Part shown: positions 1-24,000 of the stretch, one piece after another
Numbering within the stretch: the stretch's first letter is position 1
Layout: each line of letters begins with the position of its first letter
NCBI GenBank assembly: GCA_025963185.1
Contig: JAOPVE010000407.1
Location: 1 to 24,000 of the forward strand
Direction of reading: 5' to 3'
Source: Actinomycetes bacterium
GTDB taxonomy: Bacteria > Actinomycetota > Actinomycetes > Mycobacteriales > Cryptosporangiaceae
DNA: 24,000 nt
Notes under the pieces: generated by a model
What the model saw: only the letters and a program-made list of their open reading frames with translations
What the model was told of the DNA's origin: nothing
Database searches by the model: none
Program-made: the position numbers and the translations under genes

Positions 1-1812
1 TGCGCCGCCTGCCGCCGGGAGTACGACGACCCGGCCGACCGCCGGTTCCATGCCCAGCCGATCGCCTGCCCCGACTGCGGACCGACCCTCGAGCTGGTCG
101 CCCCGGCCCTGCACGAGACCGCCGACGCGGCCGTACGAGGAGCGCGTGACCTGCTCGCCGACGGCGTGATCCTGGCCGTCAAGGGACTCGGCGGCTACCA
201 CCTGGCCTGCGACGCCCGCAACGCCGGGGCCGTGGGTGAGCTGCGCCGCCGCAAGCAGCGCGGGGGCAAGCCGTTCGCGCTCATGGCCGCGAGCGCCGAG
301 GTGGCCCGCGAACTCGTGACGCTGACCGGTGGCGAGGAAACGCTGCTCACCGGATCCCGGCGCCCGATCGTGCTCGCGCCCCGGCGGCCCAGCAGCGGTG
401 TCGCTCACGAGGTGGCCCCGGGCAACCCCGACCTCGGAGTCATGCTCCCGTACACCCCGCTGCACGTGCTGCTGTTCGGCCTCGACGGCGATCCGGACGG
501 GCCGGACGTGCTGGTGATGACCTCCGGCAACATCTCGGGCGAGCCCATCGTGACGGACGACACCGAGGCGCTGGACCGGCTGGCCGGGCTCGCCGACGCG
601 TGGCTGGCGCACGACCGCGAGATCGGGATCCCGTGCGACGACTCGGTGAGCAGGCACGCGGGCGGGTCCGAGCTGCCGATCCGGCGCTCCCGCGGGTACG
701 CGCCGACACCGATCGCGCTGCCGTTCGAGATCGGTCCCACCCTCGCGGCCGGGGCGGACCTCAAGAGCACCTGCGCCCTGGCGTCCGGCCGGTACGCGTG
801 GGTCAGCCAGCACATCGGCGACCTGGACGATCTGTCGACCCTGACCGCGCTGACCCGCACCGAGGCGCACCTGGAGGCGCTGACCGGGGTCCGGCCCGAG
901 CTGGTGATCGCCGACGCCCACCCGGGCTACCGGTCCACCGGGTGGGCCCGGGAGCAGGCGGGCACGCGGCCGCTGCGGCTGGTCCAGCACCACCACGCGC
1001 ACGTCGCCTCGGTGATGGCCGAGCACGGCCTCGGTCCGGACGAGCAGGTCATCGGGATCGCGTTCGACGGCACCGGCTACGGCACCGACGGCGCGGTCTG
1101 GGGCGGCGAGGTGCTCGTCGCCTCGTACAAGTCGTTCCGGCGGGCCGGGCACCTGAAGTACGCGCCGCTGGCCGGGGGCGACGCGAGCGTCCTGCGGCCC
1201 TACCGGATGGCCCTGGCACACCTGCGCGAGGCCGGGCTGGCCTGGCAGGACGACCTGCCGCCGGTGCTCGCCTGCCCGCCCGTCGAGCGCGAGGTGCTCG
1301 CCCACCAGCTCGGCACCGGGTTCGGCACCGTGCCCACCTCCAGCATGGGACGGCTCTTCGACGCCGTCGCCTCCCTGGCCGGGGTCCGGCACGCCGTGGA
1401 CTACGAGGCCGAGGCCGCGATCGAGCTGGAGGGCCTGGCCCGGTCGGTGTCGGCGGACGGTGCCTACGAGTTCGCTCTGACAGCGGGCGGCGGGCCGCTC
1501 GTCGCCGATCCGGGTCCGGTGATCCGGTCCGTGGCCGCGGACGTGCGGTCCGGGGTGCCCGCGGCCCAGATCGCGGCCCGGTTCCACGCGGCCGTGACGG
1601 ACCTGATCACCGCACTCGCCGAGCGCTGCCGCGACGAGACCGGCCTGGACGTCGTCGCGCTCGGCGGCGGGGTCTTCCAGAACGCGCTGCTGATCGCCGC
1701 GGCTCAGCGCGAACTCGGCGAGCGCGGCTTCACCGTGCTGCGCCCGCGGCTGCTGCCGCCGAGCGACGCCGGCATCGCCCTGGGCCAGCTCGTCGCCGGT
1801 GCGGCGGGCTGA
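1..1812 (+). CDS. hypF: [NiFe]-hydrogenase maturation carbamoyltransferase HypF (5'-truncated by window edge)
   Basis: Frame 1 is open from nt 1. Translation starts CAACRREYDDPADRRFHAQPIACPDCGP (HypF zinc-finger CxxC pairs). It continues with KGLGGYHLACDA (YrdC/Sua5-like domain) and QHHHAHVAS and GGGVFQN (Kae1-like domain). Stop TGA at 1810-1812. Confidence 0.95.
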   Translation, partial: CAACRREYDDPADRRFHAQPIACPDCGPTLELVAPALHETADAAVRGARDLLADGVILAVKGLGGYHLACDARNAGAVGELRRRKQRGGKPFALMAASAEVARELVTLTGGEETLLTGSRRPIVLAPRRPSSGVAHEVAPGNPDLGVMLPYTPLHVLLFGLDGDPDGPDVLVMTSGNISGEPIVTDDTEALDRLAGLADAWLAHDREIGIPCDDSVSRHAGGSELPIRRSRGYAPTPIALPFEIGPTLAAGADLKSTCALASGRYAWVSQHIGDLDDLSTLTALTRTEAHLEALTGVRPELVIADAHPGYRSTGWAREQAGTRPLRLVQHHHAHVASVMAEHGLGPDEQVIGIAFDGTGYGTDGAVWGGEVLVASYKSFRRAGHLKYAPLAGGDASVLRPYRMALAHLREAGLAWQDDLPPVLACPPVEREVLAHQLGTGFGTVPTSSMGRLFDAVASLAGVRHAVDYEAEAAIELEGLARSVSADGAYEFALTAGGGPLVADPGPVIRSVAADVRSGVPAAQIAARFHAAVTDLITALAERCRDETGLDVVALGGGVFQNALLIAAAQRELGERGFTVLRPRLLPPSDAGIALGQLVAGAAG

Positions 1813-1839
1813 CGTGAGAAGGAGAAGAGGAGAGCGCGC

Positions 1840-2124
1840 ATGTGCCTAGCCGTTCCGGGACGCATCCTGAGCATCGCCGAGGCCGACGGGACCGTCATGG
1901 CCGACGTCGACTTCGGCGGCGTCCATAAGGGCGTGTGCCTCCAATATGTACCCGACGCCGCGATCGGCGACTACGTTGTCGTGCACGTCGGGTTCGCCAT
2001 CCAGCGCCTGGACGAGAAGTCGGCGCAGGACACCCTCGCGAACTTCGAGCGCCTCGGGATCCTCGAGGAGGAGTTCGGCGACGGTTTCAGCCGCGCAGCG
2101 AAGCAGGCAGGGGCAGAATCATGA
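1840..2124 (+). CDS. hypC: hydrogenase assembly chaperone HypC/HupF
   Basis: 94 aa with the diagnostic N-terminus [10 protein letters not shown] strong SD (AAGGAGAAGAGGAGA) lies upstream of ATG 1840. The stop overlaps the hypD start (ATGA at 2121-2124). Confidence 0.95.
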
Positions 2125-3221
2125 AGTATCTGGACGAGTTCAGCGACCCCGACCTGGCCGGCCACCTGGTCGAGGCGATCCATGCGGCCACGACGCGCCC
2201 GTGGGCGATGATGGAGGTCTGCGGCGGGCAGACGCACTCGATCATCCGGCACGGCATCGACCAGTTGCTGCCCGAGGGCGTGGAGATGATCCACGGCCCG
2301 GGCTGCCCGGTCTGCGTGACGCCGCTGGAGATCATCGACAAGGCCCTGGCGATCGCCGCCGAGCCGGGCGTGATCTTCTGCTCCTTCGGCGACATGCTCC
2401 GGGTGCCCGGCAGCAGCCAGGATCTGTTCGTCATCAAGAGCGCCGGCGCGGACGTGCGGGTGGTCTACTCCCCGCTCGACGCGCTCGCGATCGCCCGCGA
2501 GAACCCCGACAAGCAGGTCGTCTTCTTCGGGATCGGCTTCGAGACCACCGCCCCGGCCAACGCCATGACGGTCTACCAGGCCAAACGGCTCGGCGTGCCG
2601 AACTTCTCGCTGCTGGTCTCGCACGTGCTCGTCCCCCCGGCGATGGCCGCGATCATGGAGTCGCCGCGCTGCCGGGTCCAGGCGTTCCTCGCCGCCGGGC
2701 ACGTGTGCAGCGTCATGGGCACCGCGGAGTACCCGCCGCTCGCCGAGAAGTACCAAGTGCCGATCGTCGTGACCGGATTCGAGCCGCTGGACATCCTCGA
2801 AGGCATCCGGCAGACGATCATCCAGCTCGAATCCGGGCAGCACGAGCTCGCCAACGCCTACCCGCGGGCCGTCCGCGCCGAGGGCAACCCGGCCGCGATC
2901 GCGATGCTCCAGGACGTCTTCGAGGTCACCGACCGCACCTGGCGGGGCATCGGGATGATCCCGAAGAGCGGCTGGCGGCTGTCCGAGCGGTACGCGGCCT
3001 TCGACGCCGAGCGCCGGTTCGACGTGGCCGGGATCCGCACCGAGGAGTCGGCGATCTGCCGGTCCGGCGAGGTCCTGCAGGGCCTGATCAAGCCCAACGA
3101 GTGCGCGGCCTTCGGCAAGCAGTGCACGCCGCGTAACCCGCTCGGGGCGACCATGGTGTCCTCCGAGGGCGCCTGCGCGGCCTACCACGCCTACCGGCGG
3201 CTGGACCTGGTGTCGTCGTGA
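2121..3221 (+). CDS. hypD: hydrogenase maturation Fe-S protein HypD
   Basis: Starts [11 protein letters not shown] at ATG 2121; the longer track ORF from 1935 is an out-of-context extension. Motifs seen: [25 protein letters not shown] and a C-terminal Cys cluster. Confidence 0.95.
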
Positions 3222-3294
3222 GCGAGCGGAGCGAGCGAACCAACAAGCACAGTGCGACCGGGTCAGGCCGGCTAGAGCGAAGCGAGGGCCGCGG

Positions 3295-4353
3295 ATGACC
3301 GCCGAGCTGGACTTCGAGGCGTGGACCTGCCCGGTCCCGCTGCGGGACACGCCGTTCGTGGTGATGGGGCACGGCGGCGGCGGGGCGATGTCCGGGGAAC
3401 TGGTCGAGCACCTGTTCCTGCCGGCGTTCGGCGACGCGGCTGCCCCGGGCCTGGCCGACTCCGCGGTGATCACCGCGGGCGGCGCGCGGCTGGCGTTCTC
3501 CACCGACTCCTATGTGGTCAAGCCGATGTTCTTCCCCGGCGGATCCATCGGCGACCTCGCGGTCAACGGCACCGTCAACGACCTGGCCATGTCGGGCGCG
3601 ACCCCGCTGTACCTGTCGACGGCGTTCATCCTGCAGGAGGGCACGGCGCTGGCCGACATCCGCCGGATCGCGCGGGCGATGGGCACCGCCGCCTCGGCCG
3701 CCGGGGTCCAGCTCGTCACCGGCGACACCAAGGTCGTCGACAGCGCCAGCGGCGACGGCGTCTACGTGAACACCGCCGGGGTGGGGATCGTCCCGGACGG
3801 GGTCGTCATCGGCCCCACCCGGGCGGCCCCGGGCGACGCCATCCTGATCAGCGGCGACATCGGCGTGCACGGGGTGGCCGTGATGAGCTGCCGCGAGGGG
3901 CTGGAGTTCGGCACCACGATCGCCAGCGACACCGCGGCCCTGCACGGGCTCGTCGCGGACATGATCGCCACCGACGCCGACATCCACGTGCTGCGCGATC
4001 CGACCCGGGGCGGGGTCGCCGCCTCGCTCAACGAGATCGCGCGCGCCGCCATGGTCGGGGTCGAGCTGGTCGAGCGGGCGCTGCCGATCCCGGCCGAGGT
4101 GCGGGACGCGTGCAGCCTGCTCGGCCTCGATCCGCTGCAGGTCGCGAACGAGGGCAAGCTGATCGCGTTCGTGCCCGAGGACACCGCCGACCAGGTACTG
4201 GAAGCCATGCGCGCCCACCCGCACGGGGCCGGATCGAAGCGGATCGGCCGCTGCGTCCCCGAGCACCCCGGCACGGTCGTCGCGCGGACGGCCCTGGGCG
4301 GGACCCGCGTGGTGAGCATGCCGATCGGCGAGCAGCTGCCCCGGATCTGCTGA
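3295..4353 (+). CDS. hypE: hydrogenase maturation carbamoyl dehydratase HypE
   Basis: 352 aa with an AIR-synthase-like fold signature (VVMGHGGGG, GDTKVV). It ends ...PRIC with the conserved C-terminal Cys that carries the thiocyanate. Confidence 0.95.
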   Translation: MTAELDFEAWTCPVPLRDTPFVVMGHGGGGAMSGELVEHLFLPAFGDAAAPGLADSAVITAGGARLAFSTDSYVVKPMFFPGGSIGDLAVNGTVNDLAMSGATPLYLSTAFILQEGTALADIRRIARAMGTAASAAGVQLVTGDTKVVDSASGDGVYVNTAGVGIVPDGVVIGPTRAAPGDAILISGDIGVHGVAVMSCREGLEFGTTIASDTAALHGLVADMIATDADIHVLRDPTRGGVAASLNEIARAAMVGVELVERALPIPAEVRDACSLLGLDPLQVANEGKLIAFVPEDTADQVLEAMRAHPHGAGSKRIGRCVPEHPGTVVARTALGGTRVVSMPIGEQLPRIC

Positions 4354-4391: not shown

Positions 4392-5111
4392 GTGAGCGCC
4401 GCGGGAGCGCTGCTGTTCGCGCGGTACGCCTACCCGCCGAACGCGCTGGGCTACTGCGGCCCCGAGGGCGCCGACGCGCTGCTCGTGCCGGGCGCGGCCG
4501 CGGACATCGCCGCGCGCGCCCGGCAGTTCGAGGGCGCGTGGAGCTACCTGGAGTTCCTCGCCGAGGCGGCCGGGATCGCCGATCCGCTGGACGAGGCCGT
4601 GGTCGAGGCGTACTGGATCGGCAGCGACCTGCTCGCCGCGTCCGATCCGCGCGCCCTGACCGATCGGCTGCTCGACCGGTTCCGCGGCCAGTCCGGCGGG
4701 ACGTGGCGGGAGGCGGGCGACCGCGCGATCCCGCACCACGCCTTCCAGGTGTTCGAGGTCTACCCGTGGGCCACTCTGCTGGAGGCGGGCGGGCACCCGG
4801 TGGCGCTGTCGGTGCTCGATCAGTGCCGGATCCGCACGGGCACGGTCCTGTCGGCCGGCGGCGAGACCGCGCAGGTCCGGTCCCGGCCGCTGACCTGGGA
4901 CGGCACCGTGGCCAGCCCCGGAGATCCGCGGGTGGAGACCGCCCGCTGGTCCGCCGGTGGCCGGTCGCTGCTGTCCGGCCTCGCCCCGGGCGACCGGGTC
5001 GCCCTGCACTGGGACTGGATCTGCGACGTGATCACCGCCGAGCAGGCCACCCAGATCGAGGCGACCGAGGCCCAGGTCATCAGTGGAAGATGTTCACCGC
5101 CCGTGCGATGA
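4392..5111 (+). CDS. conserved uncharacterised protein linked to the hyp operon (from memory, resembles the actinobacterial DUF6390-type protein found after hypE)
   Basis: 239-aa ORF with high GC3, GTG start 39 nt after the hypE stop, same strand. No recognisable catalytic motif. The family assignment is recollection only. Confidence 0.65.
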   Translation: MSAAGALLFARYAYPPNALGYCGPEGADALLVPGAAADIAARARQFEGAWSYLEFLAEAAGIADPLDEAVVEAYWIGSDLLAASDPRALTDRLLDRFRGQSGGTWREAGDRAIPHHAFQVFEVYPWATLLEAGGHPVALSVLDQCRIRTGTVLSAGGETAQVRSRPLTWDGTVASPGDPRVETARWSAGGRSLLSGLAPGDRVALHWDWICDVITAEQATQIEATEAQVISGRCSPPVR

Positions 5112-13625: not shown

Positions 13626-14477
13626 TCAGACCCCCGCGGCCGAGATGATGAGGTCGGTGAGGAACCCGGCGGCCATGCCCGCGACGAGGCCCCAGCCGAG
13701 CAGGTCCCGGCGGCCCTTGAGGCCGATCCCGGCGAGCTGCAGGACCACGTAGAGGATCGACCCGGCGGCGAGGGTGAGGAACGCGACGCTGACCGCCTGG
13801 TTCGTCACCGAGTGCCCGATCACCGTGCCGAGGAACGTCGGGCCGCCGCCGATCACGCCGAGGCCCAGGAGCAGGCCCCAGCTCGGCCTCTCGGCCTCGC
13901 CCGCCAGCGGCGCCGTGATCCCGAAGCCCTCGGTGGCGTTGTGCAGCGAGAACCCGATCACCAGCAGGGTTGCCATGGCGATGTCCCCGGCCGCGGCGGC
14001 GCCGCCGATCGCCAGTCCCTCGGCGAAGTTGTGCAGGCCGATCCCGATGGCGATGAGCAGCGCGAGCCGGCGGGCGGGGGTCAGCCGCAGCGCGGTCCGC
14101 TCGGCCGCGAGCTCGCCGCTGGCCATCGCGCCCGGCCCGAACTTCGGCTCCGGTGCGGCGGCGCGGCGGCGCATCCACGACTCGTAATAGACCAGGCCCA
14201 TGAGGCCGACGGTGAGGCCGCCGAGGAACAGCAGCCCGTAGCCGAACACCGGCCCCGCGCCACCCTTGCCGCCGTGCAGGTCGACGACCGCGGCGTCCAG
14301 CGGCTCGAACGCCGCCGACAGGACGTCCCACAGCAGGAACACCAGCACGCCCGCCGCCGCCGCGTTGAGCAGCTGGCGCAACGCGGGCGCGGGACGCCGG
14401 AGCCGCCCGACCGGCAGGCCGAGCAGTATCGTCGCCCCGGCGATGAGTCCGAGTACGAAAACCTGGACAGTGCTCAC
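13626..14477 (-). CDS. ZIP-family divalent metal transporter (ZupT-like)
   Basis: GLHNFAEGLAIG and FSLHNATEGFG motifs in a roughly 8-TM protein. Start placed at GTG 14477 (VSTVQVFVLG) because a strong SD AAGGAGGAG lies just upstream; the track ORF starts 11 codons earlier. Confidence 0.85.
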   Translation of the reverse strand: MSTVQVFVLGLIAGATILLGLPVGRLRRPAPALRQLLNAAAAGVLVFLLWDVLSAAFEPLDAAVVDLHGGKGGAGPVFGYGLLFLGGLTVGLMGLVYYESWMRRRAAAPEPKFGPGAMASGELAAERTALRLTPARRLALLIAIGIGLHNFAEGLAIGGAAAAGDIAMATLLVIGFSLHNATEGFGITAPLAGEAERPSWGLLLGLGVIGGGPTFLGTVIGHSVTNQAVSVAFLTLAAGSILYVVLQLAGIGLKGRRDLLGWGLVAGMAAGFLTDLIISAAGV

Positions 14478-14488
14478 AAGCTCCTCCT

Positions 14489-14507
14489 TCAGCTTAGCCT
14501 TACCTAA
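14489..14507. promoter_or_regulatory. DtxR-family (IdeR/MntR-type) iron box
   Basis: TCAGCTTAGCCTTACCTAA matches the 19-bp consensus TWAGGTWAGSCTWACCTWA at 17/19 positions. It is an AT-rich island in GC-rich DNA, 12 nt upstream of the ZIP start (abutting its SD) and 73 nt upstream of the FetB-like start. Confidence 0.55.
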
Positions 14508-14579
14508 CACCAGGTCGGCGGCCGGATCAACTGCGGGGTACTGGATGCGGCCGGACGGCGGAGAAGTGAGGAGACGCCC

Positions 14580-15398
14580 GTGGGATCAGCCACCCTCGTG
14601 CTCGGCCCCCGGCTGGGGATCGCGCTGGCCGTCCTGACCCTCGTCGCCGCGGGCACCGCCGCCGCGACCGGGCTCGGCTACTCGCGCCAGATCGTGGTCG
14701 CGTCGGTGCGGGCGATCCTCCAGCTCGCGGCGGTGTCGCTCGTCATCGCCGCGGTCGTCGCCTCACTGCCCCTCGCGGCCACGTTCGTGCTGGTGATGCT
14801 GGCAATCGCCGCGCTGACCTCCGGGCGGCGCATCACCGGGCGACGCGGCTGGTGGGCCGCCGCGCCGATCGCCGCGGGAGCGGTCCCGATCATCGCCGGG
14901 CTGATCGCCGGGGGGCTCGTACCGCCGCGCGGGATCGCGATCGTGCCGATGGCCGGGATCCTGATCGGCGGCGCGATGACCGCCACCTCGCTGGCCGGGC
15001 GGCGGGCGACCGACGAACTGGCGCAGCGCTGGGGCGAGTACGAGGCCGCCCTCGCCCTGGGATTCCTGCCCCGGGATGCGGCGATGCTGGTGATCCAGCC
15101 CGCGGCGGCCCAGGCGCTGATCCCGGCGCTCGACCAGACCCGGACCGTCGGGCTGGTGACCCTGCCCGGCGCCTACGTCGGGGTCCTGCTCGGCGGGGCC
15201 AGCCCGCTCGCCGCCGGGGCGACCCAGGTCCTCGTGCTCGTCGGCCTGCTCGCCGCCGAGGCGATCGCGGTCGCGGCGACCGCCGAACTCGTGGCCCGCG
15301 GCCTCCTGCGCCGGGCACCCGCCCGCCCCCGCCGCCCCAACCCCCTGCGCACCCTGACCCGCCGTCTACCGAAGCGTGTGCCGCTAGACCGGCCCTGA
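14580..15398 (+). CDS. fetB: FetB/YbbM-family (UPF0014) ABC-type iron-export permease
   Basis: By eye it aligns with E. coli FetB. VASVRAILQLAAV matches SVGRAIIQLIIV. IVPMAGILIGGAM matches VIPIAGMIAGNAM. LIPALDQTRTVGLVTLPGAYVGVLLGG matches LIPTVDSAKTVGLVSLPGMMSGLIFAG. GTG start with SD GAGGAG 6 nt upstream. Confidence 0.8.
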   Translation: MGSATLVLGPRLGIALAVLTLVAAGTAAATGLGYSRQIVVASVRAILQLAAVSLVIAAVVASLPLAATFVLVMLAIAALTSGRRITGRRGWWAAAPIAAGAVPIIAGLIAGGLVPPRGIAIVPMAGILIGGAMTATSLAGRRATDELAQRWGEYEAALALGFLPRDAAMLVIQPAAAQALIPALDQTRTVGLVTLPGAYVGVLLGGASPLAAGATQVLVLVGLLAAEAIAVAATAELVARGLLRRAPARPRRPNPLRTLTRRLPKRVPLDRP

Positions 15399-15426
15399 CC
15401 GGCGCAACGGCACACACGTGCGCGGC

Positions 15427-15460
15427 AGGGTTGGTCAGCCGGGAGGGTTGGTCAGGCGGC
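15427..15460. repeat. 17-bp tandem duplication (agggttggtcagccggg / agggttggtcaggcggc) across a stop codon
   Basis: The units at 15427-15443 and 15444-15460 share their first 12 nt and 14 of 17 positions overall. The second unit contains the stop (tca, 15452-15454) of the minus-strand gene. Confidence 0.8.
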
Positions 15461-16171
15461 GGGGGTGGGCTCGGGGGTGCGGGCCGGCTGCGGGATGCGG
15501 GTCCGGCGGCGCAGGCGCAGGCCCACGACCACGGCGGCCATCAGGACGGCGAGCACCACGTTGGTGACGACGACTGCCCGCACGGTCAGGCCGGACGAGG
15601 CGGCGGGCTTGCCGATCCAGCGCAGTGAGCCGGTCACCGTGATCGGGGTGGTACCGGCGAGCAGGTGGACCGTCCAGTCGCCGATCAGGTGGGCGTGCAC
15701 CGGGTCGGCGGCCACGGCGGGAGGCTGCGCGCCGCCCATCCAGTGGATCCGGTGGTCGTGCCAGCGGACCGTGTGCTGCGCCGAGATCCGCTTCCAGGCC
15801 GGCGCCACCGAGGACTGGCCGGGCGTCGCCGGATCCCCGAACAGGCTCTTGTTGATCAGCGCTGACTGGGAGAGCTGGTTCTCGTCGGTGCCCGCCGCGG
15901 TGATCCGCAGGTAGGGCTCGCGCAGGTAGCCGAGGATCAGCACTGGCTCGGCGGCCGAGGAGGCGACCTCGATCCATTCCCCCCGCGGATCGACGCGCGC
16001 CCGCACCCCGGCGGCCGCGGGCTGGGTGCTGGTCAGCGTGGTCTGGTAGTAGGCCGCGTCGGGGATCGGCTGGCCGCCGGCCAGGTGCGCCGACGCCGGA
16101 TCGGCGGCGGCGAGCGCGCCCGCCGGGGCGGCGAGAACCGCGAGCAGCACGGCGATCCGCAGAGTCCGCAT
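15452..16171 (-). CDS. secreted, C-terminally membrane-anchored protein with predicted N-terminal His and a His cluster (candidate metal/copper-binding protein)
   Basis: Start at ATG 16171 (MRTLRIAVLLAVLAAPAGALAAADPASA|HLAGG), giving an A-S-A signal-peptidase site that would leave His as residue 1. Also seen: an internal RWHDHRIHWMGG cluster and DPVHAHLIG, plus a C-terminal TM helix VVVTNVVLAVLMAAVVVGL followed by RLRRR. Confidence 0.65.
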   Translation of the reverse strand: MRTLRIAVLLAVLAAPAGALAAADPASAHLAGGQPIPDAAYYQTTLTSTQPAAAGVRARVDPRGEWIEVASSAAEPVLILGYLREPYLRITAAGTDENQLSQSALINKSLFGDPATPGQSSVAPAWKRISAQHTVRWHDHRIHWMGGAQPPAVAADPVHAHLIGDWTVHLLAGTTPITVTGSLRWIGKPAASSGLTVRAVVVTNVVLAVLMAAVVVGLRLRRRTRIPQPARTPEPTPAA

Positions 16172-16511
16172 GACAATCCCCTCGCCGGGCTTCACTGGCA
16201 GCGCGCGCCGTACCAGCCGGCTGCGCGCCAGGACAGGAGCGGCGAACGGCGGCGCGGATACCCCCGGACCGCCCCGCGGCCACATTCCGGCCCGAACGGC
16301 TGATCCGGGAGCACCCGGTGCGGGTGGGCGGCGCTCCGGCGGGCGGACCGGGCGGACCGGGAGAACGGCCGGCCGCCGTAGTCACGCCCGGATGACGCCC
16401 CGATGACAGCGCCGTCATGGATCTCGGCGTTGCACCCCAGACACCGCACTCTCAGTCACCGAGAGGCCGGCCCCGACCGGACCGGACCGGAAGACCCGAG
16501 AGGGGAACCGC

Positions 16512-19500
16512 ATGTTACGTCGCCTGCCCCGGCGATGGTGGACCGTCGCGGCCACCGGGCTGCTGCCGATCGCCAGCTCACTGCTGGTAATCGCCGCACC
16601 CGCTGCCGCCGCACCTTCCACCGGCAGCGTCACGCTGCGGGTGGAGAGTGCGCGGACTGTCGGTGCACCACCGGAGATCCAGAAGGGCGACCAGGTCACG
16701 AGCTACAAGTGGCTGGTCACCGCCGACGACGTCGGCAACCCGCACGACGCGCTGCAGAACTGCCTGCCCTCCCGGGCTGGCGTGAGCAGCGCCCACAACT
16801 TCGCCGACACGTGCCAGTGGCCGTCGATCCGGTACACCCCAGGCGCCGTGCCGATCGTCGCGCAGGGTGACCAGTCGGACCTGGGCGCCGGCAAGGCACT
16901 GGGCGGGCTGCCCGCCGGGAAGTACCTCATCTCGGTGACCGCGGACGGGTACAAGATCGACGGCGCGCACTTCGCCGTGACCGGCGGCCAGACCAGCCCC
17001 GTGACCGTGAGTATGCAGCCCTACCCGCTCCCGCTCGGATCGGTCCGGATCCGCGTCTTCAACGACTCGATCCCGGTCGACGGGACCTACGAGGTGGGCG
17101 CCGAGCGCGGCCTGGCCGGGTTCACCGCGCACCTGGCGGACGTCCTCGGCGAGGTCTCGGTCGACTACTACGGCAACCGGCTGTGCACCCAGTACGTGCA
17201 CACCCCGCCGGACGCGACCCACCCCGCCGGCCAGATCGTGTTCGACAACGGCAAGCCGCGGATCGCGCCGAACTCGATCGGCAAGTGCCTCAGCGACGCC
17301 AGCGGCGACATCGTGATCCCCAACCTCGGCCCGGACCGCTACGCGGCGCAGGTTGTCCCGCCCACCGGCACCTCGTGGTACCAGACGACGACGCTCGAAG
17401 GCGCCCACGACTGGGACATCTGGGTCCAGGAGGGCGACACCGGCTACGACACCGAGCAGACCGTCGGCGGCGAGAAGGTGCCGTACGTGGACTTCGGGTT
17501 CGTCGCTCCCCGCGCGCTACCGGCGAGCAGGGCGACCGGCGAGATCACGGGCACCGCCGTCGGCGGGCTCGCCTACATCGGCGGCCAGGGCGGCACCGTC
17601 GTCCCCGAGACCGGGATGGCCGGCGCGAAGGTCAGCGGCCCGATCCGCGCGCCGCTGATCGCCCTGTCCGATCTCGGCGGCAACGACCAGATGGTCTACC
17701 TGGGCCGGTGGGGCGCCGACGGCAAGTTCGACGTCAAGAACGTGCCCGACGGCGACTACCAGCTCACCATCTGGGACTACGAGCAGGAGTACATCCTGTG
17801 GAGCTTCAACGTCACCGTGAGCGGCGGCAAGAAGGTCGACGTCGGGACGAAGATGCTGGTCGGCTGGTTCAGCTCGTTCACCGGATCGGTGTTCCTCGAC
17901 GCCAACGGCAACGGCAAGCGCGATCCCGGTGAGACCGGCGTGCCCAGGTTCACGATCGGCCTCAAGGAGCGCGACAACTCCCTGATGGACCAGGCCACCA
18001 ACACCGTCAGCACCGACGACCAGGGCAACTACACCCTCAAGGAGGGATACCCGCTGACCAAGTGGCTCGTGCTGGAGGCCTTCAACACCCGGTTCCGGAA
18101 CACTGGCGTCACCTACCAGGCCGACAACCAGCCGCAGCCGACGACGCTGCTCGGTGGCGCGGTGGACATGAACGTCCTGCCGGTGATCGGCCTCGGCGGC
18201 CGCCTCGACTGGGGCGTCCAGCCCTACGCGGCCGGCGAGAACGGCGGCATCGCGGGCACCATCACCTACGACACGACCCGCAACGAACTCGACGCGTCCA
18301 ACTCGGTGACCGAGGCCTACCAGCCGGGGATCCCGAACGTGCCGGTGCACCTGTACGCGGTGGTGCGCGACGCCAGTGGCGATCCGGTGAAGAACGCCGA
18401 CGGATCGCTGCAACGCGGTCCGGAACTCAACGACGCCTACACGTCCGAGACGTGGCAGGCCGGGCGGGGCTGCACCGCGCGGATGTGGAACGGCCAGCCG
18501 CTCACCACCCAGCAGGCCCTGCCGGATCCCGGCGCCGCGGCGAACGAGCTGTGCCTCGAGGCGCCGATGATGGGCACCCAGTTCGCGCCCAGCGACACCA
18601 CGGCGGGCAGCTTCGGCCAGACCGTCAACGGCAACTACGCGTTCAGCGACTCGAAGCTGAACCTGTACCCGCCGGGCGATCCGCGGAACCCGGGCCCGGA
18701 CCACGGCCTGGCGCTCTACGCCCCGCTCCCGGACGGGCAGACCCAGCCGCTGGCGCCGGATGACTACATCGTCAGCGCCGAGATCCCGCGGACCGCGGAC
18801 GGCAAGCCGATGTACCAGGTCACCAAGGAGGAGGACGTCAACGTCTTCGACGGCGACGGCTTCCTGCCGCAGGAGAACTTCCCGCCGTCCCCCGCGCAGG
18901 CCGCGGACCAGCCTGGACCCGCGGACACCACTCCAGCGCCGGCGGTCAACCCCTCCGGCGGGCCGGGCATCACGTCCGGGTGCGCCGGCGCGGACCACAC
19001 CGTGCACGTCACCGACGCGGGATTCCTCGCCGGTGGCGGCAGCCCCTACGAGGGCCAGCAGAAGCCGCTGTGTGACAGCAAGCTGGTGGAGGTGCGGGCC
19101 GGGCAGACCGCGGCGCCGAACTTCACCCTGTTCACCCCGGTGCCGCTGCCGACCCACTTCTGGGGCCTGACGATCAACGACCTGGGCATCTCGCACGACC
19201 CGCGCAGCGCCAGCTACGGCGAGGCCGAGCCACTGCCGAACGTTCCGGTCGGGCTGTACGACTACGCCGGGCGCCTGGTGGACACCGTCGACACGGACTT
19301 CAACGGCTTCTACGAGGCCATCGAGCCGTCGACGGGCACGTTCAACTGCCCGGTCCCGGCCGGACCATGCCCGGGCATGTACCGCTTCGTGGGCAACGAC
19401 CCGGGACAGCCGGGCCATCTCAACGCCAACTACAACCAGCGGTACCGGACCATCGCCACGAACTTCCAGGCCTGGCCCGGACTGTTCACGGTCACCGACA

Positions 19501-21647
19501 CCGCCCCGACCCAGGTGGCGATGACGGCCCTGGCCCCCGGATCCACCCAGGTCGGCGCGGTGGACTGCACCCCGCCGGCGGCGACGCCCCAGCTGTTCTC
19601 GGTGTCCAAGCCGTACCTGCGCAGCACGGAGACCAGCCGGAGCATCACGATCCGGGGCACCGCGTTCGGCACGGCCAAGGGCACGGTCAGGATGGCGACC
19701 GCGACCGGCGGATCCGTTCCGGCGACCGTGACGAGCTGGTCCGGCACCGAGATCCACGTGACGCTGGGGACCCCGTCCTCGCCGTCCACGGGCACACTGT
19801 CGGTCACCACGGCGGCCGGGACGTCCACGATCAACGGGCTGGCGTTCCAGTTCGCGGGCACCTCGGCGATCGGATCGTCGGGCAACCCGCGGATCCGCCA
19901 GGTCAACCCGCCCGCCTCCGCCGTGAGCCCGGGCGAGAAGACCTACACCACCGTGCAGGCGGCGCTGGAGGACGCGGCGAGCGCGGCCCGCGGATCCGAG
20001 TACGACGTCGTGGTGGTGTGGCCGAACGCGCCCGGCACGGACAACCCGTCCGGGGCGTACTTCGAGAACGTCGTGCTGCACTCGGCGGTCCGGCTGCAGG
20101 GGGTGGGTCCCGGCGGGACGTACGCCGACGGCAGCCACGTCCCGGGATCCGTGCTCGACGGCCGCAACTTCGCGATCGACAACCCCAGCGGCATCGCCTG
20201 GATGAGCCTGGTCGCGTCGATCCCGTACGCGGGGCCCGCCGAGGTTCCCGACGGCGCGGTGGTCACCGTGCTGGCCCGGCGCGGCCAGTTCGACAACCGC
20301 GGCGCCCCGGCGGTGAACGGCTTCACGATCACCGGCGGCAACCAGTCGGACTTCCCGGGCAACGTCAACGAGATCACCGGCGGGATCAAGACCCCGTACG
20401 GCGCCGACGGGGCCGTGGTCACCCAGGGCGGCGGTGTGTACCTGCACGCCGAGGCCAGGGACGCCAAGGTCACCGACAACGTGATCGCGGGCAACAGCGG
20501 CTCGTACGGCGGCGCGATCCGCGTCGGCACCCCGTACGCCACCACGAACAACATGGCCGTGACGATCGCCCGCAACCAGATCCGCGACAACGGCGGCACC
20601 AACCTCGCCGGCGCCGTCGCGCTCTTCTCCGGGAGCAACAACTACTCGGTCGACCACAACGCGGTCTGCGGGAACTTCTCCGCCGAGTACGGGGGCGGGA
20701 TCTCGCACTTCGGGCTCTCCCCCGGCGGCGCGATCACCGCGAACGCGGTCTACCTCAACGAGTCCTACGACGAGGGCGGCGGCATCATGGTGGCTGGCGA
20801 GCTCCCGGCGGACCCCGCGAAAGCCTCCCCCGGATCCGGTGCGGTCACGATCGACGGCAACACGGTCCAGGCCAACCTCGCCAGCGACGACGGGGGCGGG
20901 ATCCGGTTCCTGCAGGCCGGGAACTTCCCGATCAGCGTCACCAACAACGTGGTCGCCGGGAACATCTCGGCCCACGAGGGCGGCGGCCTGGCCCTGGACG
21001 ACGCGACCGACGTGCGGCTCGTCGACAACACGGTGATGGACAACATCACCACGGCGACCGCGGTCACCAGCGACGGCAAGCCGGCCCCGGCCGGACTGTC
21101 GACGGCGGCCAACAGCGACCAGCTCCAGGCCACCCTGCCGTCCGGATCGGCGGCGTTCAGCAACCCGAAGATGTTCGGAAACATCTTCTGGGACAACCGC
21201 GCCGGATCCTGGAACGGTGTCTCCGTCACCGGGATCGGGGCGGCCGGGGCACCGGCGGGCGAGGCGATCCGGTACTGGGATCTGGGCTCGCTCGACGCGG
21301 GCGTGGTCCTGACTCCGACGAACTCGGTGCTGCAAACCACGACCGGCACGGCGCTGTCCAGCACGAACAAGGTGGGCAGCAACCCGAACGTGGTCTCGCC
21401 GTTCCTGACCAGCGTCTCGATCGATCCGTCGCGGACCTACCCGGCGTTCCGGCAGGCCGTGATCGTGATCCAGCACACCGCGGGCGCCGCGCTCGGGGAC
21501 TACCACCTGACCGCGGCCGGACCGGCGCTCAACGCCGGCGCCACCAGCAGGACGTTCGGGACCACGACGGTCAAGGCGCCCGCGCTGGACATCGACGGCG
21601 ACGTGCGCAGCACGAAGACGCCGGACATCGGCGCCGACGAGCGCTGA
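16512..21647 (+). CDS. giant (1711 aa) secreted multi-domain protein with carboxypeptidase-regulatory/SdrD-B-like Ig folds, an IPT/TIG-like domain and a C-terminal right-handed parallel beta-helix
   Basis: Signal MLRRLPRRWWTVAATGLLPIASSLLVIAAPAAAA. GSVFLDANGNGKRDPGETGVPRF is an SdrD B-like motif (about 17880-17960). PQLFSVS...ITIRGTAFG...VTSWSGTEIHVTL is IPT/TIG-like (about 19590-19850). Periodic GGG(V/I)xh coils follow: GGGVYLH, YGGAIRV, GGGISHF, GGGIMVA, DGGGIRF, EGGGLAL (about 20300-21200). The C-terminus is DIDGDVRSTKTPDIGADE. SD GAGAGGGGAA lies upstream. Confidence 0.9.
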   Translation: MLRRLPRRWWTVAATGLLPIASSLLVIAAPAAAAPSTGSVTLRVESARTVGAPPEIQKGDQVTSYKWLVTADDVGNPHDALQNCLPSRAGVSSAHNFADTCQWPSIRYTPGAVPIVAQGDQSDLGAGKALGGLPAGKYLISVTADGYKIDGAHFAVTGGQTSPVTVSMQPYPLPLGSVRIRVFNDSIPVDGTYEVGAERGLAGFTAHLADVLGEVSVDYYGNRLCTQYVHTPPDATHPAGQIVFDNGKPRIAPNSIGKCLSDASGDIVIPNLGPDRYAAQVVPPTGTSWYQTTTLEGAHDWDIWVQEGDTGYDTEQTVGGEKVPYVDFGFVAPRALPASRATGEITGTAVGGLAYIGGQGGTVVPETGMAGAKVSGPIRAPLIALSDLGGNDQMVYLGRWGADGKFDVKNVPDGDYQLTIWDYEQEYILWSFNVTVSGGKKVDVGTKMLVGWFSSFTGSVFLDANGNGKRDPGETGVPRFTIGLKERDNSLMDQATNTVSTDDQGNYTLKEGYPLTKWLVLEAFNTRFRNTGVTYQADNQPQPTTLLGGAVDMNVLPVIGLGGRLDWGVQPYAAGENGGIAGTITYDTTRNELDASNSVTEAYQPGIPNVPVHLYAVVRDASGDPVKNADGSLQRGPELNDAYTSETWQAGRGCTARMWNGQPLTTQQALPDPGAAANELCLEAPMMGTQFAPSDTTAGSFGQTVNGNYAFSDSKLNLYPPGDPRNPGPDHGLALYAPLPDGQTQPLAPDDYIVSAEIPRTADGKPMYQVTKEEDVNVFDGDGFLPQENFPPSPAQAADQPGPADTTPAPAVNPSGGPGITSGCAGADHTVHVTDAGFLAGGGSPYEGQQKPLCDSKLVEVRAGQTAAPNFTLFTPVPLPTHFWGLTINDLGISHDPRSASYGEAEPLPNVPVGLYDYAGRLVDTVDTDFNGFYEAIEPSTGTFNCPVPAGPCPGMYRFVGNDPGQPGHLNANYNQRYRTIATNFQAWPGLFTVTDTAPTQVAMTALAPGSTQVGAVDCTPPAATPQLFSVSKPYLRSTETSRSITIRGTAFGTAKGTVRMATATGGSVPATVTSWSGTEIHVTLGTPSSPSTGTLSVTTAAGTSTINGLAFQFAGTSAIGSSGNPRIRQVNPPASAVSPGEKTYTTVQAALEDAASAARGSEYDVVVVWPNAPGTDNPSGAYFENVVLHSAVRLQGVGPGGTYADGSHVPGSVLDGRNFAIDNPSGIAWMSLVASIPYAGPAEVPDGAVVTVLARRGQFDNRGAPAVNGFTITGGNQSDFPGNVNEITGGIKTPYGADGAVVTQGGGVYLHAEARDAKVTDNVIAGNSGSYGGAIRVGTPYATTNNMAVTIARNQIRDNGGTNLAGAVALFSGSNNYSVDHNAVCGNFSAEYGGGISHFGLSPGGAITANAVYLNESYDEGGGIMVAGELPADPAKASPGSGAVTIDGNTVQANLASDDGGGIRFLQAGNFPISVTNNVVAGNISAHEGGGLALDDATDVRLVDNTVMDNITTATAVTSDGKPAPAGLSTAANSDQLQATLPSGSAAFSNPKMFGNIFWDNRAGSWNGVSVTGIGAAGAPAGEAIRYWDLGSLDAGVVLTPTNSVLQTTTGTALSSTNKVGSNPNVVSPFLTSVSIDPSRTYPAFRQAVIVIQHTAGAALGDYHLTAAGPALNAGATSRTFGTTTVKAPALDIDGDVRSTKTPDIGADER

Positions 21648-21745: not shown

Positions 21746-23008
21746 GTGTCCGACCATTCACTGCGCCGCGCCGTCGGCCGGCGCGCGTTCCTCGCCGGGG
21801 CGGCCGGAGCCGCCGGCTGGGCTGCCCTGTCCGCCAGCCGTGGGCCAGGCTCGCCGCGCCTGGCCAGGGCGGCCGTGACCACCGCCGTCCCGAACCCGAC
21901 CACCAGCGTGCACCTGGCCGGCACCGACGGATGGGTGTCGATGCCGCAGGGCGCCCCGGCGATCCCGCCGTTCTGGCCCGACCCGCTGGCCCCGGCGAAC
22001 GCCAACCTCTACGCGTTCGGGTTCCGGGACGTCACCGGGATGACCGCGGCGCAGATCACCGCCCAGCGCGGGAAGGCCCAGATCTCGGCGCCGATGCTCT
22101 CCTTCGACCAGGAGACCGACATCAAGATCACCCTGACCAACCTCGGGCTCTCCCAGCGGCCGGATCTCGTCGACGGCCACACAGTCCACTGGCACGGGTT
22201 CCGCAACGCGATCCCGCTGTTCGACGGGGTTCCGGAGCTGTCCATCGCGGTGCCGATCGGGCGGGACTTCACGTACTTCTACCGCCCGCACGACCCCGGC
22301 ACGTACATGTACCACTGCCACTTCGAGGACGTCGAGCACGTCCAGATGGGCATGACGGGGCTGGTGTTCGTCCGGCCGGTGCAGAACAAGGGCACCAGGG
22401 ACCTGCCCGCGGGCAAGTACGCCTACAACTGCGGCGACGGATCGACGCGGTACGACCGCGAGTTCGGCTTCATGTTCACCGAGGTCTGGGCCGAGGCGCA
22501 CTACCGCGACGCGCACATCCAGACGACGGACTGGACCGACTACAACCCGACGTTCTTCGCGATGAACGGCCGGGCCTACCCGGACACGCTCGCGCCGAAC
22601 GGCGATCCGCTGAAGGTGCCCGCCGATCCGCGGCTGCAGTACCAGCCGATCTCCTCGCTGGTGACCTGCAACTCCGGCGACCGGGTGCTGCTGCGGCTGG
22701 CGAACCTGGGCTACCAGAACCACGCGATCACGGTCGACGGCATCGACCTCACCGTGATCGGCAAGGACGCCAGCCTGCTCCGGGGGCGCGACGGGACCGC
22801 CCAGTACACCGTCACCAACACCGTCGAGATCGGGCCGGGCGAGAGCCGGGACGTGCTGTTCACAGCCCCGAACCCCGGCACCTACCTGCTCTACGACCGG
22901 GACTACCGCGCGCTGACCAACGCCGGCGGCGGGCTCGGCGGGCAGATGACCGAGATCCGGGTCTCGCCCAAGGGGACGGTCCCCGCACAGACCAAGGCCA
23001 ACGCATGA
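21746..23008 (+). CDS. Tat-exported two-cupredoxin multicopper-oxidase-like protein (MCO-A): domain 1 has a full ligand set, domain 2 has none
   Basis: GTG 21746 with SD AAGGAGA 5 nt upstream. Tat motif GRRAFLAGAAGAAG. Domain 1 carries HTVHWHG (22178-22198) and HCHFEDVEHVQMGM (22313-22354). In domain 2 the equivalent positions read YQNHAITVDG and NPGTYLLYDRDY...GGQM, so the His/Cys ligands are lost. The first 790 aa or so of track ORF 19367..23008 are a shadow of the giant gene. Confidence 0.9.
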   Translation: MSDHSLRRAVGRRAFLAGAAGAAGWAALSASRGPGSPRLARAAVTTAVPNPTTSVHLAGTDGWVSMPQGAPAIPPFWPDPLAPANANLYAFGFRDVTGMTAAQITAQRGKAQISAPMLSFDQETDIKITLTNLGLSQRPDLVDGHTVHWHGFRNAIPLFDGVPELSIAVPIGRDFTYFYRPHDPGTYMYHCHFEDVEHVQMGMTGLVFVRPVQNKGTRDLPAGKYAYNCGDGSTRYDREFGFMFTEVWAEAHYRDAHIQTTDWTDYNPTFFAMNGRAYPDTLAPNGDPLKVPADPRLQYQPISSLVTCNSGDRVLLRLANLGYQNHAITVDGIDLTVIGKDASLLRGRDGTAQYTVTNTVEIGPGESRDVLFTAPNPGTYLLYDRDYRALTNAGGGLGGQMTEIRVSPKGTVPAQTKANA

Positions 23009-23049
23009 GGAGGCCGAGCATGAGGAGGCTGAGCGTGAGGAGCCAAGGG
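23005..23049 (+). repeat. three tandem in-frame 15-bp units, each carrying a start codon and an SD-like GAGGAG(G)
   Basis: atgaggaggccgagc (23005-23019), atgaggaggctgagc (23020-23034), gtgaggagccaaggg (23035-23049), then ATG 23050. The first ATG overlaps the MCO-A stop (ATGA). Confidence 0.85.
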
Positions 23050-24000
23050 ATGATCAGCCACGGCCGGTTACGGCGCGCACTGCCGGCGGTGCTGGGACTG
23101 GCGACGGCCGCCGTGCTGGTGGTGCCCGGACCCGGCAGCTCCGCCGCGACGGCCAGCGAGGGGCTGGACTGCCAGAGTTCGCCGGACAACGCCTTCGCCC
23201 TCACCGCGAACGCCGGGTACGTCACCACCCCCGACGGCAACTCGATCTACATGTGGAGCTACGCCAGCGACGGCGGATCGTTCCAGCTTCCCGGCCCGTC
23301 CCTGTGCGTCGACTCGGGCGCGAAGGTCACGGTAACCCTGCGCAACACGCTGCCCGAGGCGACCTCGATCATGTTCCCCGGCCAGAAGCAGGTACTCGCG
23401 GACGGCCAGCCGGCCCAGCCGGTCACCGACTCCGCCGGGACCCTGACCTCGATGACCAGCACGGCGGGCGCCACCGGCGGATCCGTCACCTACACCTTCA
23501 CCGCCGGCAGCCCGGGCACCTACCTCTACCAGTCCGGCACCGACGTGCAGAAGCAGCAGCAGATGGGGCTGTTCGGCGCGCTCGTCGTGCGCCCGGCGGG
23601 CCACCCCGACCAGGAGAACGACCGGCCGGACTCCCGCTTCAGCGCCAGCCACGAGTACCTGTACATGCTCAGCGAGGTCGACCCGGACGCGCACCTGGCC
23701 GTCGAGCGCAAGCGGCCGTTCGACTGGAGCACGTACAAGGCGCGGTACTTCATGATCAACGGCCGGAGCATGCCGGACACGATCTCGCCGAACCACGCCG
23801 CGTGGCTGCCGAGCCAGCCGTACGGATCGCTGATCCACATCCGGCCGTTCGATCCGGCGTCGAACCCGCAGCCCGCGCTGATCCGGTACCTCAACGCCGG
23901 GACCGTGAGCTACCCGTTCCACCCGCACGGCAGCGACGAGCAGCTCATCTCCCGCGACGGCCACCCGGCCCAGGGACCGAACGGCCAGGACCTGTCGTTC
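23005..24000 (+). CDS. second multicopper-oxidase-like paralog (MCO-B), 3'-truncated by window edge: domain 1 has no ligands, domain 2 carries HPHG
   Basis: Not in the ORF track because it has no stop in the window. I translated frame 1 by hand and it is open from 23005 to 24000. Possible starts are 23005, 23020, 23035 and 23050. Signal ...GRLRRALPAVLGLATAAVLVVPGPGSSAATA. Domain 1 reads TSIMFPGQ where MCOs have TSIHWHG, and GTYLYQSGTDVQKQQQMGLFGALVV where they have GTYWYHSH. Domain 2 has FMINGRSMPDT and YPFHPHG (23911-23931). Confidence 0.85.
   Translation, partial: MRRPSMRRLSVRSQGMISHGRLRRALPAVLGLATAAVLVVPGPGSSAATASEGLDCQSSPDNAFALTANAGYVTTPDGNSIYMWSYASDGGSFQLPGPSLCVDSGAKVTVTLRNTLPEATSIMFPGQKQVLADGQPAQPVTDSAGTLTSMTSTAGATGGSVTYTFTAGSPGTYLYQSGTDVQKQQQMGLFGALVVRPAGHPDQENDRPDSRFSASHEYLYMLSEVDPDAHLAVERKRPFDWSTYKARYFMINGRSMPDTISPNHAAWLPSQPYGSLIHIRPFDPASNPQPALIRYLNAGTVSYPFHPHGSDEQLISRDGHPAQGPNGQDLSF

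Follow-up and report, generated by a model that had tools for sequence, protein, structure and literature searches.

Complementary loss of copper ligands in neighbouring genes points to a candidate multicopper oxidase with an active site shared between proteins

Main

Can the active site of a multicopper oxidase (MCO) be divided between the products of two different genes? The question is raised by a 24,000-nucleotide (nt) stretch of DNA from an actinomycete of the Cryptosporangiaceae (assembly GCA_025963185.1, contig JAOPVE010000407.1, positions 1 to 24,000; hereafter the window), which ends in two adjacent genes for MCO-like proteins, MCO-A and MCO-B (A and B for short). An initial annotation, made from the sequence alone, had proposed that the two proteins have lost their copper ligands in opposite domains and share one trinuclear copper cluster at an interface between domain 1 of A and domain 2 of B. 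To our knowledge, the eight cluster histidines of every characterised MCO all stem from a single gene product, be it as one chain or as several identical ones, and a full-text literature search, with most subscription journals outside its coverage, returned no report of an MCO with a trinuclear cluster split between gene products.

In this work, we followed the two genes through their orthologues, paralogues and genomic neighbourhoods. The A and B halves, together with a third, ligand-free paralogue (MCO-C, or C) and a giant secreted partner (BIG), point to what would be an undescribed oxidase with its active site spread across proteins. On the sequence evidence we consider a trinuclear site composed of A and B quite likely, and we think it probable that A, B and C are the subunits of one extracytoplasmic MCO that arose from a type-C homotrimer by triplication and complementary loss of ligands. 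The shared site first proposed is thus supported, but the pair proposed as its unit is incomplete, as what is conserved is an A–B–C triad with a giant partner. The part of the locus that lies in the window is the following:

16512 to 21647, plus strand: BIG, a secreted protein of 1711 residues, directly upstream of MCO-A
21746 to 23008, plus strand: MCO-A, 420 residues, its GTG start codon lying 7 nt downstream of AAGGAG
23020 to 24000, plus strand: MCO-B, partial, the first 327 of 442 residues, the rest lying beyond the window end

Adjacent genes hold complementary copper ligands

MCO-A consists of two cupredoxin domains (Pfam Cu-oxidase_3, Cu-oxidase_2 and Cu-oxidase; PF07731, PF07732 and PF00394, all above cut-off) and has 3764 homologues at E <= 1e-5, with identities of 67–99% among the 120 matches listed. 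A type-1 copper site and four trinuclear-cluster histidines are found in domain 1, and domain 2 is without ligand motifs. The relevant segments are:

22178 to 22195, plus strand: HTVHWH, residues 145–150 (HTVHWHG, residues 145–151), L3-type motif with one type-1 His and two trinuclear-cluster His
22313 to 22354, plus strand: HCHFEDVEHVQMGM, residues 190–203, L4-type motif with two trinuclear-cluster His, the type-1 Cys, a type-1 His and the axial Met
22718 to 22741, plus strand: NHAITVDG, residues 325–332, degenerate domain-2 HxH position
22892 to 22906, plus strand: YDRDY, residues 383–387, degenerate domain-2 HxH (HDH/HSH) position

Both genes and all motifs quoted for them in the initial annotation, for A these segments together with the GGQM that follows YDRDY, were recovered at their coordinates. 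Across an orthologue set of 84 genomic loci (n = 84 for the columns of A, n = 80 for those of B), H145, H148, H150, H190, C191, H192, H198 and M203 are invariant in 84/84, and together with the alignments below this bears out the earlier description of A as having a complete HxxHxH plus HCH-x5-H-x4-M set in domain 1 and no surviving ligands in domain 2. In the latter, T329 and D331 stand in place of two histidines in most orthologues; Y383 and R385 are each kept in 82 of 84, and neither D331 (74/84) nor D384 (68/84) is invariant. Outside the canonical ligand set, H252 and H257 of A are also well conserved.

The best matches of MCO-A among solved structures, both distant, are 3G5W (E = 1e-17) and 2ZWN (E = 2.5e-16), with an alignment that spans both domains. 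HTVHWH aligns with HTIHWH of 3G5W, NHAITVDG with HAIHTHG of 3G5W and YPFHPHG of B, and YDRDY with IHDHV of 3G5W and AHSHA of B. This comparison also corrects the initial view that the x5 spacing in HCH-x5-H of A is atypical: 3G5W and 2ZWN read HCHVNVNEH where A reads HCHFEDVEH, and, because their domain 1 reads HTIHWHG ... YHCHVNVNEH, an x5 spacing is the norm for type-C two-domain MCOs.

MCO-B, with Cu-oxidase_3 (PF07732) above cut-off and 1990 homologues at E <= 1e-5, reads TSIMFPG, YLYQSG, YFMINGRSMPDT and YPFHPHG within the window. Its ligand positions are:

23362 to 23382, plus strand: TSIMFPG, residues 115–121, degenerate HxxHxH of domain 1, opposite HTVHWHG of A in the hhalign alignment
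23521 to 23541, plus strand: YLYQSGT, residues 168–174, degenerate HCH of domain 1, opposite YMYHCHF of A in the hhalign alignment
23911 to 23931, plus strand: YPFHPHG, residues 298–304, L1-type HxHG of domain 2, with two trinuclear-cluster His

Domain 1 of B had been called dead, and these pairings agree; none of the 80 orthologues has a histidine at the TSIMFPG columns. The remainder of B could be read from public data. A protein record (P0121) matches all 327 residues of MCO-B visible in the window and, given this match, represents the window's own full-length MCO-B. Its C terminus reads ...CGEYYHVAHSHALQQSTNYGASFGGMM..., and YYHVAHSHA is common to it and to a public contig (L001) whose MCO-A is identical to that of the window and which carries a 1711-residue gene upstream, MCO-B in full length and the beginning of a third gene of MCO type. 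The second histidine pair that the initial annotation suggested looking for beyond the window end is therefore there, as HSH, and HPHG and HSH together provide domain 2 of B with four candidate ligands of the trinuclear cluster. They are the L1/L2 signatures that complement the L3/L4 pair of A, in the layout seen in 3G5W and 2ZWN.

These four histidines (H301, H303, H410 and H412) are invariant in 80/80 orthologues and are kept even in clades only 30–50% identical, and B-like proteins of distant clades read HPFH(H/T)HG and (F/Y)MWHSH; two Cys pairs, C51/C96 and C402/C439, are conserved as well. The initial annotation had recognised YPFHPHG, which stands, but took it for a motif whose type-1 His had been replaced by Tyr, which does not, as domain 2 of 3G5W reads HAIHTHG ... 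IHDH. Because domain 2 of type-C enzymes is without a type-1 site, B domain 2 is an ordinary HxHG / H(D/S)H half and not a type-1 domain minus its His. A sequence search of solved structures gave no close solved homologue of MCO-B.

The four signature sequences (HxHG, HxH, HxxHxH, plus HCHxxxHxxxxM) are thus not united in one chain, with two in A, two in B and none in C. Among the best database matches of each family, the motifs of A occur in 120/120 and those of B in 120/120. Histidine pairs never fall at the ligand-equivalent columns of A domain 2 or B domain 1 in the orthologue and hhalign alignments, and aligning both proteins to type-C MCOs and to each other revealed no alternative ligands in these domains, a possibility that the initial annotation had raised. 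To judge from their invariance (84/84 for A, 80/80 for B), both ligand halves are under purifying selection.

The junction between the two genes is complicated by a short repeat:

23005 to 23034, plus strand: a 15-nt tandem duplicate, ATGAGGAGGCCGAGC / ATGAGGAGGCTGAGC, with two in-frame ATGs for MCO-B, the second of which (23020) is the likely start

The duplicate doubles both a Shine–Dalgarno-like GGAGG and the ATG of MCO-B, and the same is seen in L001 with one further substitution. The ATGA overlap of A and B noted initially arises because the duplicate supplies an ATG at 23005, which is probably not a real start. The ATG at 23020 lies 6 nt after a GGAGG, and public annotations (P0121, L001) begin the protein there; it is most likely the start of MCO-B, leaving an 11-nt gap after MCO-A.

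A third, ligand-free paralogue always follows

MCO-C is encoded by the gene after MCO-B, just beyond the window, and likewise has two cupredoxin domains (PF07732 above cut-off), in neither of which its sequence or the orthologue alignment holds any of the ligand motifs. The paralogy of A, B and C extends across both domains (hhalign probability 100%; E = 3e-51, 2e-39 and 7e-72), and in profile–profile alignment B and C are the closest to each other. For A against B (probability 100%, E = 3e-51, both domains covered) the alignment sets TSIMFPG against HTVHWHG, YLYQSG against YMYHCH, NHAITVDG against YPFHPHG and YDRDY against AHSHA; with the Pfam assignments, it confirms that the two are paralogues of two cupredoxin domains each, as first suggested. 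In Actinomycetota the cupredoxin domains of C are followed by an Ig-like tail of ~600 residues. Some clades have C in a bare form of 334–372 residues, with the two domains and nothing else, and its conserved role therefore lies in the cupredoxin domains. H269 of C (numbering of locus L002) occupies the 'first His' position of an HxxHxH-like stretch of domain 2, as H326 does in A.

The three genes travel together. B comes after A in all 79 loci whose sequence extends far enough, and C after B in 72 of 72; metagenome contigs searched from B have A upstream in 51/51 and a third MCO-like open reading frame (ORF) downstream in 51/51, including one locus with overlapping stop-to-stop ORFs that was flagged by the script for that alone. 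Whether A and B also occur separately, which the initial annotation had proposed checking, thus has a clear answer from either side: they were never found apart.

A live domain 1 on A, a live domain 2 on B and a dead C are what a three-membered ring with a single type-1/trinuclear unit would predict, and this pattern argues for a heterotrimer in place of the type-C homotrimer. C could instead be a separate cupredoxin-fold scaffold or adhesin that works with BIG in the same pathway, the composite site being built by A and B as a heterodimer or in some other stoichiometry. C is indeed less conserved (~50% identity, against 65–70% for A and B at the same divergence), has no ligands and bears, in Actinomycetota, a tail typical of surface proteins. 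We nevertheless regard this alternative as unlikely, given that the C module is present in all 72 and all 51 loci, has exactly two cupredoxin domains in some clades and shows paralogy to A and B along its whole length, that known two-domain MCOs are trimers, and that one chain with a live domain 1, another with a live domain 2 and a dead third one form the pattern expected of a one-site ring.

A relative of A is found in at least 554 genomes (in a scan with one genome per species), and hundreds of metagenome contigs, mostly from soil bacteria, carry the system as well. Most hosts belong to the Actinomycetota; Chloroflexota and Gaiellales account for some, and one is the metagenome-assembled genome (MAG) of a sphingomonad (Sphingomonadaceae; L083, JBLNDL010000042.1). 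No other record among the 80 close loci is alphaproteobacterial. The locus of this MAG has 51% identity to A and an actinobacterial-type layout of BIG, A and B; horizontal transfer or mis-binning could explain it.

Fusions tie A and C to BIG

BIG lies directly upstream of A in actinobacterial and Chloroflexota loci. It is built of prealbumin-like/CarboxypepD_reg domains, SdrD-B Ig-like domains and a C-terminal right-handed beta-helix, with CarboxypepD_reg and SdrD_B above the Pfam cut-off and weak matches to NosD and Beta_helix. An exhaustive search with A yielded 289 cluster representatives at E < 1e-30. Among the 150 best cluster representatives at 50% identity, 17 are BIG–A fusions of up to 2816 residues, in which a part homologous to nearly the whole 1711-residue BIG precedes the A module, and no A–B or B–C fusions occur among the same 150. 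The BIG–A fusions carry only the two domain-1 motifs, and their loci also encode a B-like protein, then a ligand-free C-like protein and then a small protein. The longest of them (L086, 3460–11910; 2816 residues) additionally contains PAP2 and VCPO_2nd (vanadium-chloroperoxidase-like) domains as well as cadherin/Big_9 repeats before the A module.

A third clade, from soil metagenomes and ~30% identical to B, encodes A, B and, after them, a giant ORF exceeding 2300 residues, whose N terminus is C-like and whose remainder is BIG-like; such C–BIG fusions were found in at least 15 loci. The giant third ORFs span ~7 kb each (L125, L128, L130, L132, L147, L149, L152, L158, L164 and L168). Two independent kinds of fusion, BIG–A and C–BIG, thus connect both A and C with BIG in a single assembly, in which we infer that BIG is a docking or substrate-binding partner of the putative oxidase.

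Separate export routes and a copper-related context

The signal peptides of A and B differ. That of A holds a twin-arginine translocation (Tat) motif:

21776 to 21799, plus strand: GRRAFLAG, Tat motif of MCO-A, with the RR motif in 110/112 full-length orthologues

In 105 of these the motif has the strict form, in line with the initial assignment of A to the Tat route. A strict Tat motif occurs in only 7 of 118 orthologues of B, whose signal is of the Sec type. Going by these motifs, A probably leaves the cytoplasm via Tat and B via Sec, and C is judged to be Sec-dependent from its N-terminal sequence alone. With A taking one route and B and C the other, any shared site would therefore have to be assembled and loaded with copper outside the cytoplasm.

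Across the 84 loci BIG is followed, in this order, by A, B, C, a small protein (~155 residues) and CopC–CopD, with a two-component system usually nearby; public annotations label A, B and C alike as 'multicopper oxidase domain-containing protein'. CopC–CopD lies downstream of the operon, the response regulator has its best match, below cut-off, in the CopR/SilR/CztR subfamily, and SCO1/SenC adjoins the proteobacterial version of the locus, a combination that suggests dedicated copper supply and regulation.

The small protein (~150–230 residues, membrane-anchored or a lipoprotein) always follows MCO-C, for example at:

L002, 15625 to 16092: small protein after C
L004, 15789 to 16349: small protein after C
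L085, 20659 to 21105: small protein after C
L087, 13020 to 13724: small protein after C
L088, 12699 to 13193: small protein after C

It has conserved motifs, DGGL..(Y/F)(V/R)VLD..KA and GQ(T/S)Y(Y/F)..Y.N, and matches no Pfam or NCBIfam family. As it keeps no Cys or Met, it is unlike known copper chaperones.

The copper-related surroundings (CopC–CopD, the CopR-like regulator and SCO1) would also suit a copper homeostasis or resistance operon without any trinuclear cluster, in which A would be a lone blue-copper electron-transfer protein, or would combine its type-1 site with a mono- or binuclear one, and B would be a separate copper binder or sequestrant. A's own Tat signal, as in self-sufficient cuproproteins, and its weak similarity to nitrite reductase and CopA (TIGR01480) speak in the same direction. 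We think this distinctly improbable. HCH plus HxH is the hallmark of type-3 ligation and would have nothing to pair with if A acted alone; independent proteins would hardly account for the 4+4 count, for the absolute invariance of each half or for halves that never occur apart; and the NCBIfam scores behind the similarity lie far below the cut-offs (44 versus 479 for CopA, 39 versus 296 for NirK).

Other genes of the window and irregular loci

The window has a G+C content of ~72%, and its nearest public relatives are actinomycete MAGs; the record P0001, named Cryptosporangiaceae, is 99% identical to MCO-A. Positions 166–4350 hold hydrogenase maturation genes (HypF, HypD and a HypE-like protein of the AIR-synthase family), followed by a DUF6390 gene at 4392–5108, all apparently unrelated to the oxidase cluster. 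Upstream of BIG are a ZIP-family metal transporter (13629–14510, minus strand), a UPF0014 membrane protein (14580–15395) and, directly next to BIG, a 277-residue protein of no family (15455–16285, minus strand). This region, 13629–16285, is where most other genomes have the CopR-like two-component system; in the window genome that system is not adjacent to BIG, and the genes upstream, among them those for hydrogenase maturation and the transporters, are unrelated. In the MAG contigs L055 and L067 the BIG, B and C regions appear broken into many short in-frame pieces, which could reflect pseudogenisation or frameshift errors of long-read assembly.

Discussion

The reading that we favour, a heteromeric oxidase with a shared site, can be set out as a sequence of steps. 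An ancestral type-C homotrimer would have undergone gene triplication and then complementary ligand loss in A, B and C. In the resulting ring, domain 1 of A would give four cluster histidines together with the type-1 Cys, His, His and Met, and domain 2 of B would give the other four histidines. Arranged in the order B–A–C, the ring would have one live interface, between B domain 2 and A domain 1, and two further interfaces that each pair dead with dead. A would be exported folded via Tat and B and C via Sec, with the cluster assembled and loaded outside the cytoplasm; the ring would dock on BIG, which probably anchors it or presents substrate; and the small membrane-anchored protein of the operon, CopC–CopD and the CopR-like system would provide copper-dependent supply and regulation.

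Our confidence in the parts of this reading differs. For the complete A–B–C ring docked to BIG, the motif and fusion patterns tip the balance slightly in favour. The most specific version, a natural heterotrimeric MCO in which a six-domain A–B–C ring with a single type-1 site and a single trinuclear cluster from two gene products forms the core of a copper-supplied cell-surface complex with BIG, we see as evenly poised. From the summed lengths of the subunits we estimate a mass of ~350–400 kDa for such a complex. That it acts as an oxidase is what we infer from its ligands, and for the electron donor our guess would be either a metal ion or some substrate bound at the surface.

Several points weigh against this reading. 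Monomer AlphaFold models are of low confidence, with a predicted local distance difference test (pLDDT) score of 60 for B (<50 in domain 2) and 52 for A, and even the fold of B domain 2 is deduced from profile alignment only. The order and stoichiometry of the ring are deduced only from the motif pattern, and the co-occurrence in one operon fits separate proteins of one pathway as well. H326 in domain 2 of A, and H119 and H269 of C, are well conserved and non-canonical. For halves of a buried trinuclear site to meet only after export would be unusual, and the Tat export of A alone might mean that A is functional by itself.

An arrangement in which A, B and C are each homotrimeric and Asp, Tyr, Arg or remaining His complete non-canonical metal sites has in its favour the conserved polar residues at former ligand positions (D331 and Y383-D384-R385 of A, H269 of C), but we consider it very improbable, as D331 and D384 vary among orthologues, a trinuclear cluster with ligands of this sort is not known from any MCO, the four invariant cluster histidines of A and the four of B would face dead partners, and the BIG–A and C–BIG fusions imply one shared assembly.

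If the shared-site oxidase is real, a cluster formed across two proteins, in a ring completed by a dead paralogue, would represent a quaternary arrangement new to MCOs, and a clean natural case of subunit entrenchment, in which a homomer becomes an obligate heteromer by complementary degeneration. The complex would then be widespread, occurring in Actinomycetota of soils, in Chloroflexota, in proteobacteria-like lineages and in a further clade from soil. The system itself is not rare in the species-level genomes, always coming with a partner of ~1700 residues and usually with copper-uptake genes. There would also be a practical consequence, in that A, B or C expressed alone as a 'laccase' would be expected to give an inactive protein.

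Comparison with known copper enzymes

The closest known systems are the two-domain MCOs, which are trimers with each trinuclear cluster ligated by two protomers and, in type C, with the type-1 site in the N-terminal domain (PMC13151041). Like A, type-C enzymes such as the blue copper oxidase of Nitrosomonas europaea (3G5W) and the metagenomic mgLAC (2ZWN) have two cupredoxin domains per chain, of which the N-terminal one bears a type-1 site (in A, H145, C191, H198 and M203) and the motifs HxxHxH plus HCH-x5-H-x4-M, and their C-terminal domain holds the HxH plus H(D/S)H half that we find in domain 2 of B. Whereas each type-C chain contains both halves, contributing 4+4 trinuclear histidines and giving three sites per homotrimer, here the halves reside on two gene products and a third paralogue has neither, which would leave at most one site per ring. 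In two-domain MCOs the three chains close a ring of six cupredoxin domains, and each cluster takes four His from one chain's domain 1 and four from domain 2 of the adjacent chain. The identity of MCO-A to 3G5W is low, and the similarity shows up only domain by domain.

Neither A nor B attains the level of any curated NCBIfam family, all scores being far below the cut-offs. Nitrite reductase, NirK, is likewise a homotrimer of two-cupredoxin chains with the type-1 site in domain 1 and the catalytic copper at the interface of domain 1 with the neighbouring domain 2. NirK has a single type-2 copper with three His, and an H-C motif. We rejected it as an identity for A, which scores 38.9 bits against a cut-off of 296.3 (TIGR02376) and has His on either side of the Cys. 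CopA/PcoA (TIGR01480) was set aside on scores of 44.1 bits for A and 36.6 for B against a cut-off of 478.95, and the ligand pattern also speaks against it. The MCO 'heterotrimer' of Nitrosopumilus is a proteolytic variant of one gene product.

Large extracellular MCO assemblies of several subunits or domains are known among manganese oxidases, namely the Bacillus Mnx complex (MnxG with MnxE/MnxF) and MnxG/McoA/MofA of Pseudomonas and Leptothrix. Their operons also encode copper chaperones and two-component regulators, and their size class resembles that of the BIG–A fusions. Their accessory subunits, however, are not MCO paralogues and their trinuclear cluster is never split between gene products. 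MnxG, McoA and MofA have all four copper motifs in one chain (PMC8218464), and on this published motif layout we rejected a manganese-oxidase identity for the locus as a matter of architecture.

The overall shape proposed here is most like that of the six-domain MCOs (ceruloplasmin, hephaestin and the factor V/VIII fold), which form a six-domain ring with one trinuclear cluster at one interface. Ceruloplasmin is a single fused polypeptide with several type-1 sites, whereas the ring proposed here would come from three genes with their own signal peptides and have a single type-1 site; with no detectable close sequence relationship of the six-domain MCOs to A, B or C, the likeness would be a parallel outcome and not membership. 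In the classical model of Nakamura and Go, six-domain MCOs are said to have arisen from a triplicated two-domain unit. If our reading is right, the A–B–C system would be a living example of the triplicated intermediate between two-domain trimers and six-domain ceruloplasmin, and an unfused, independently evolved counterpart of ceruloplasmin itself.

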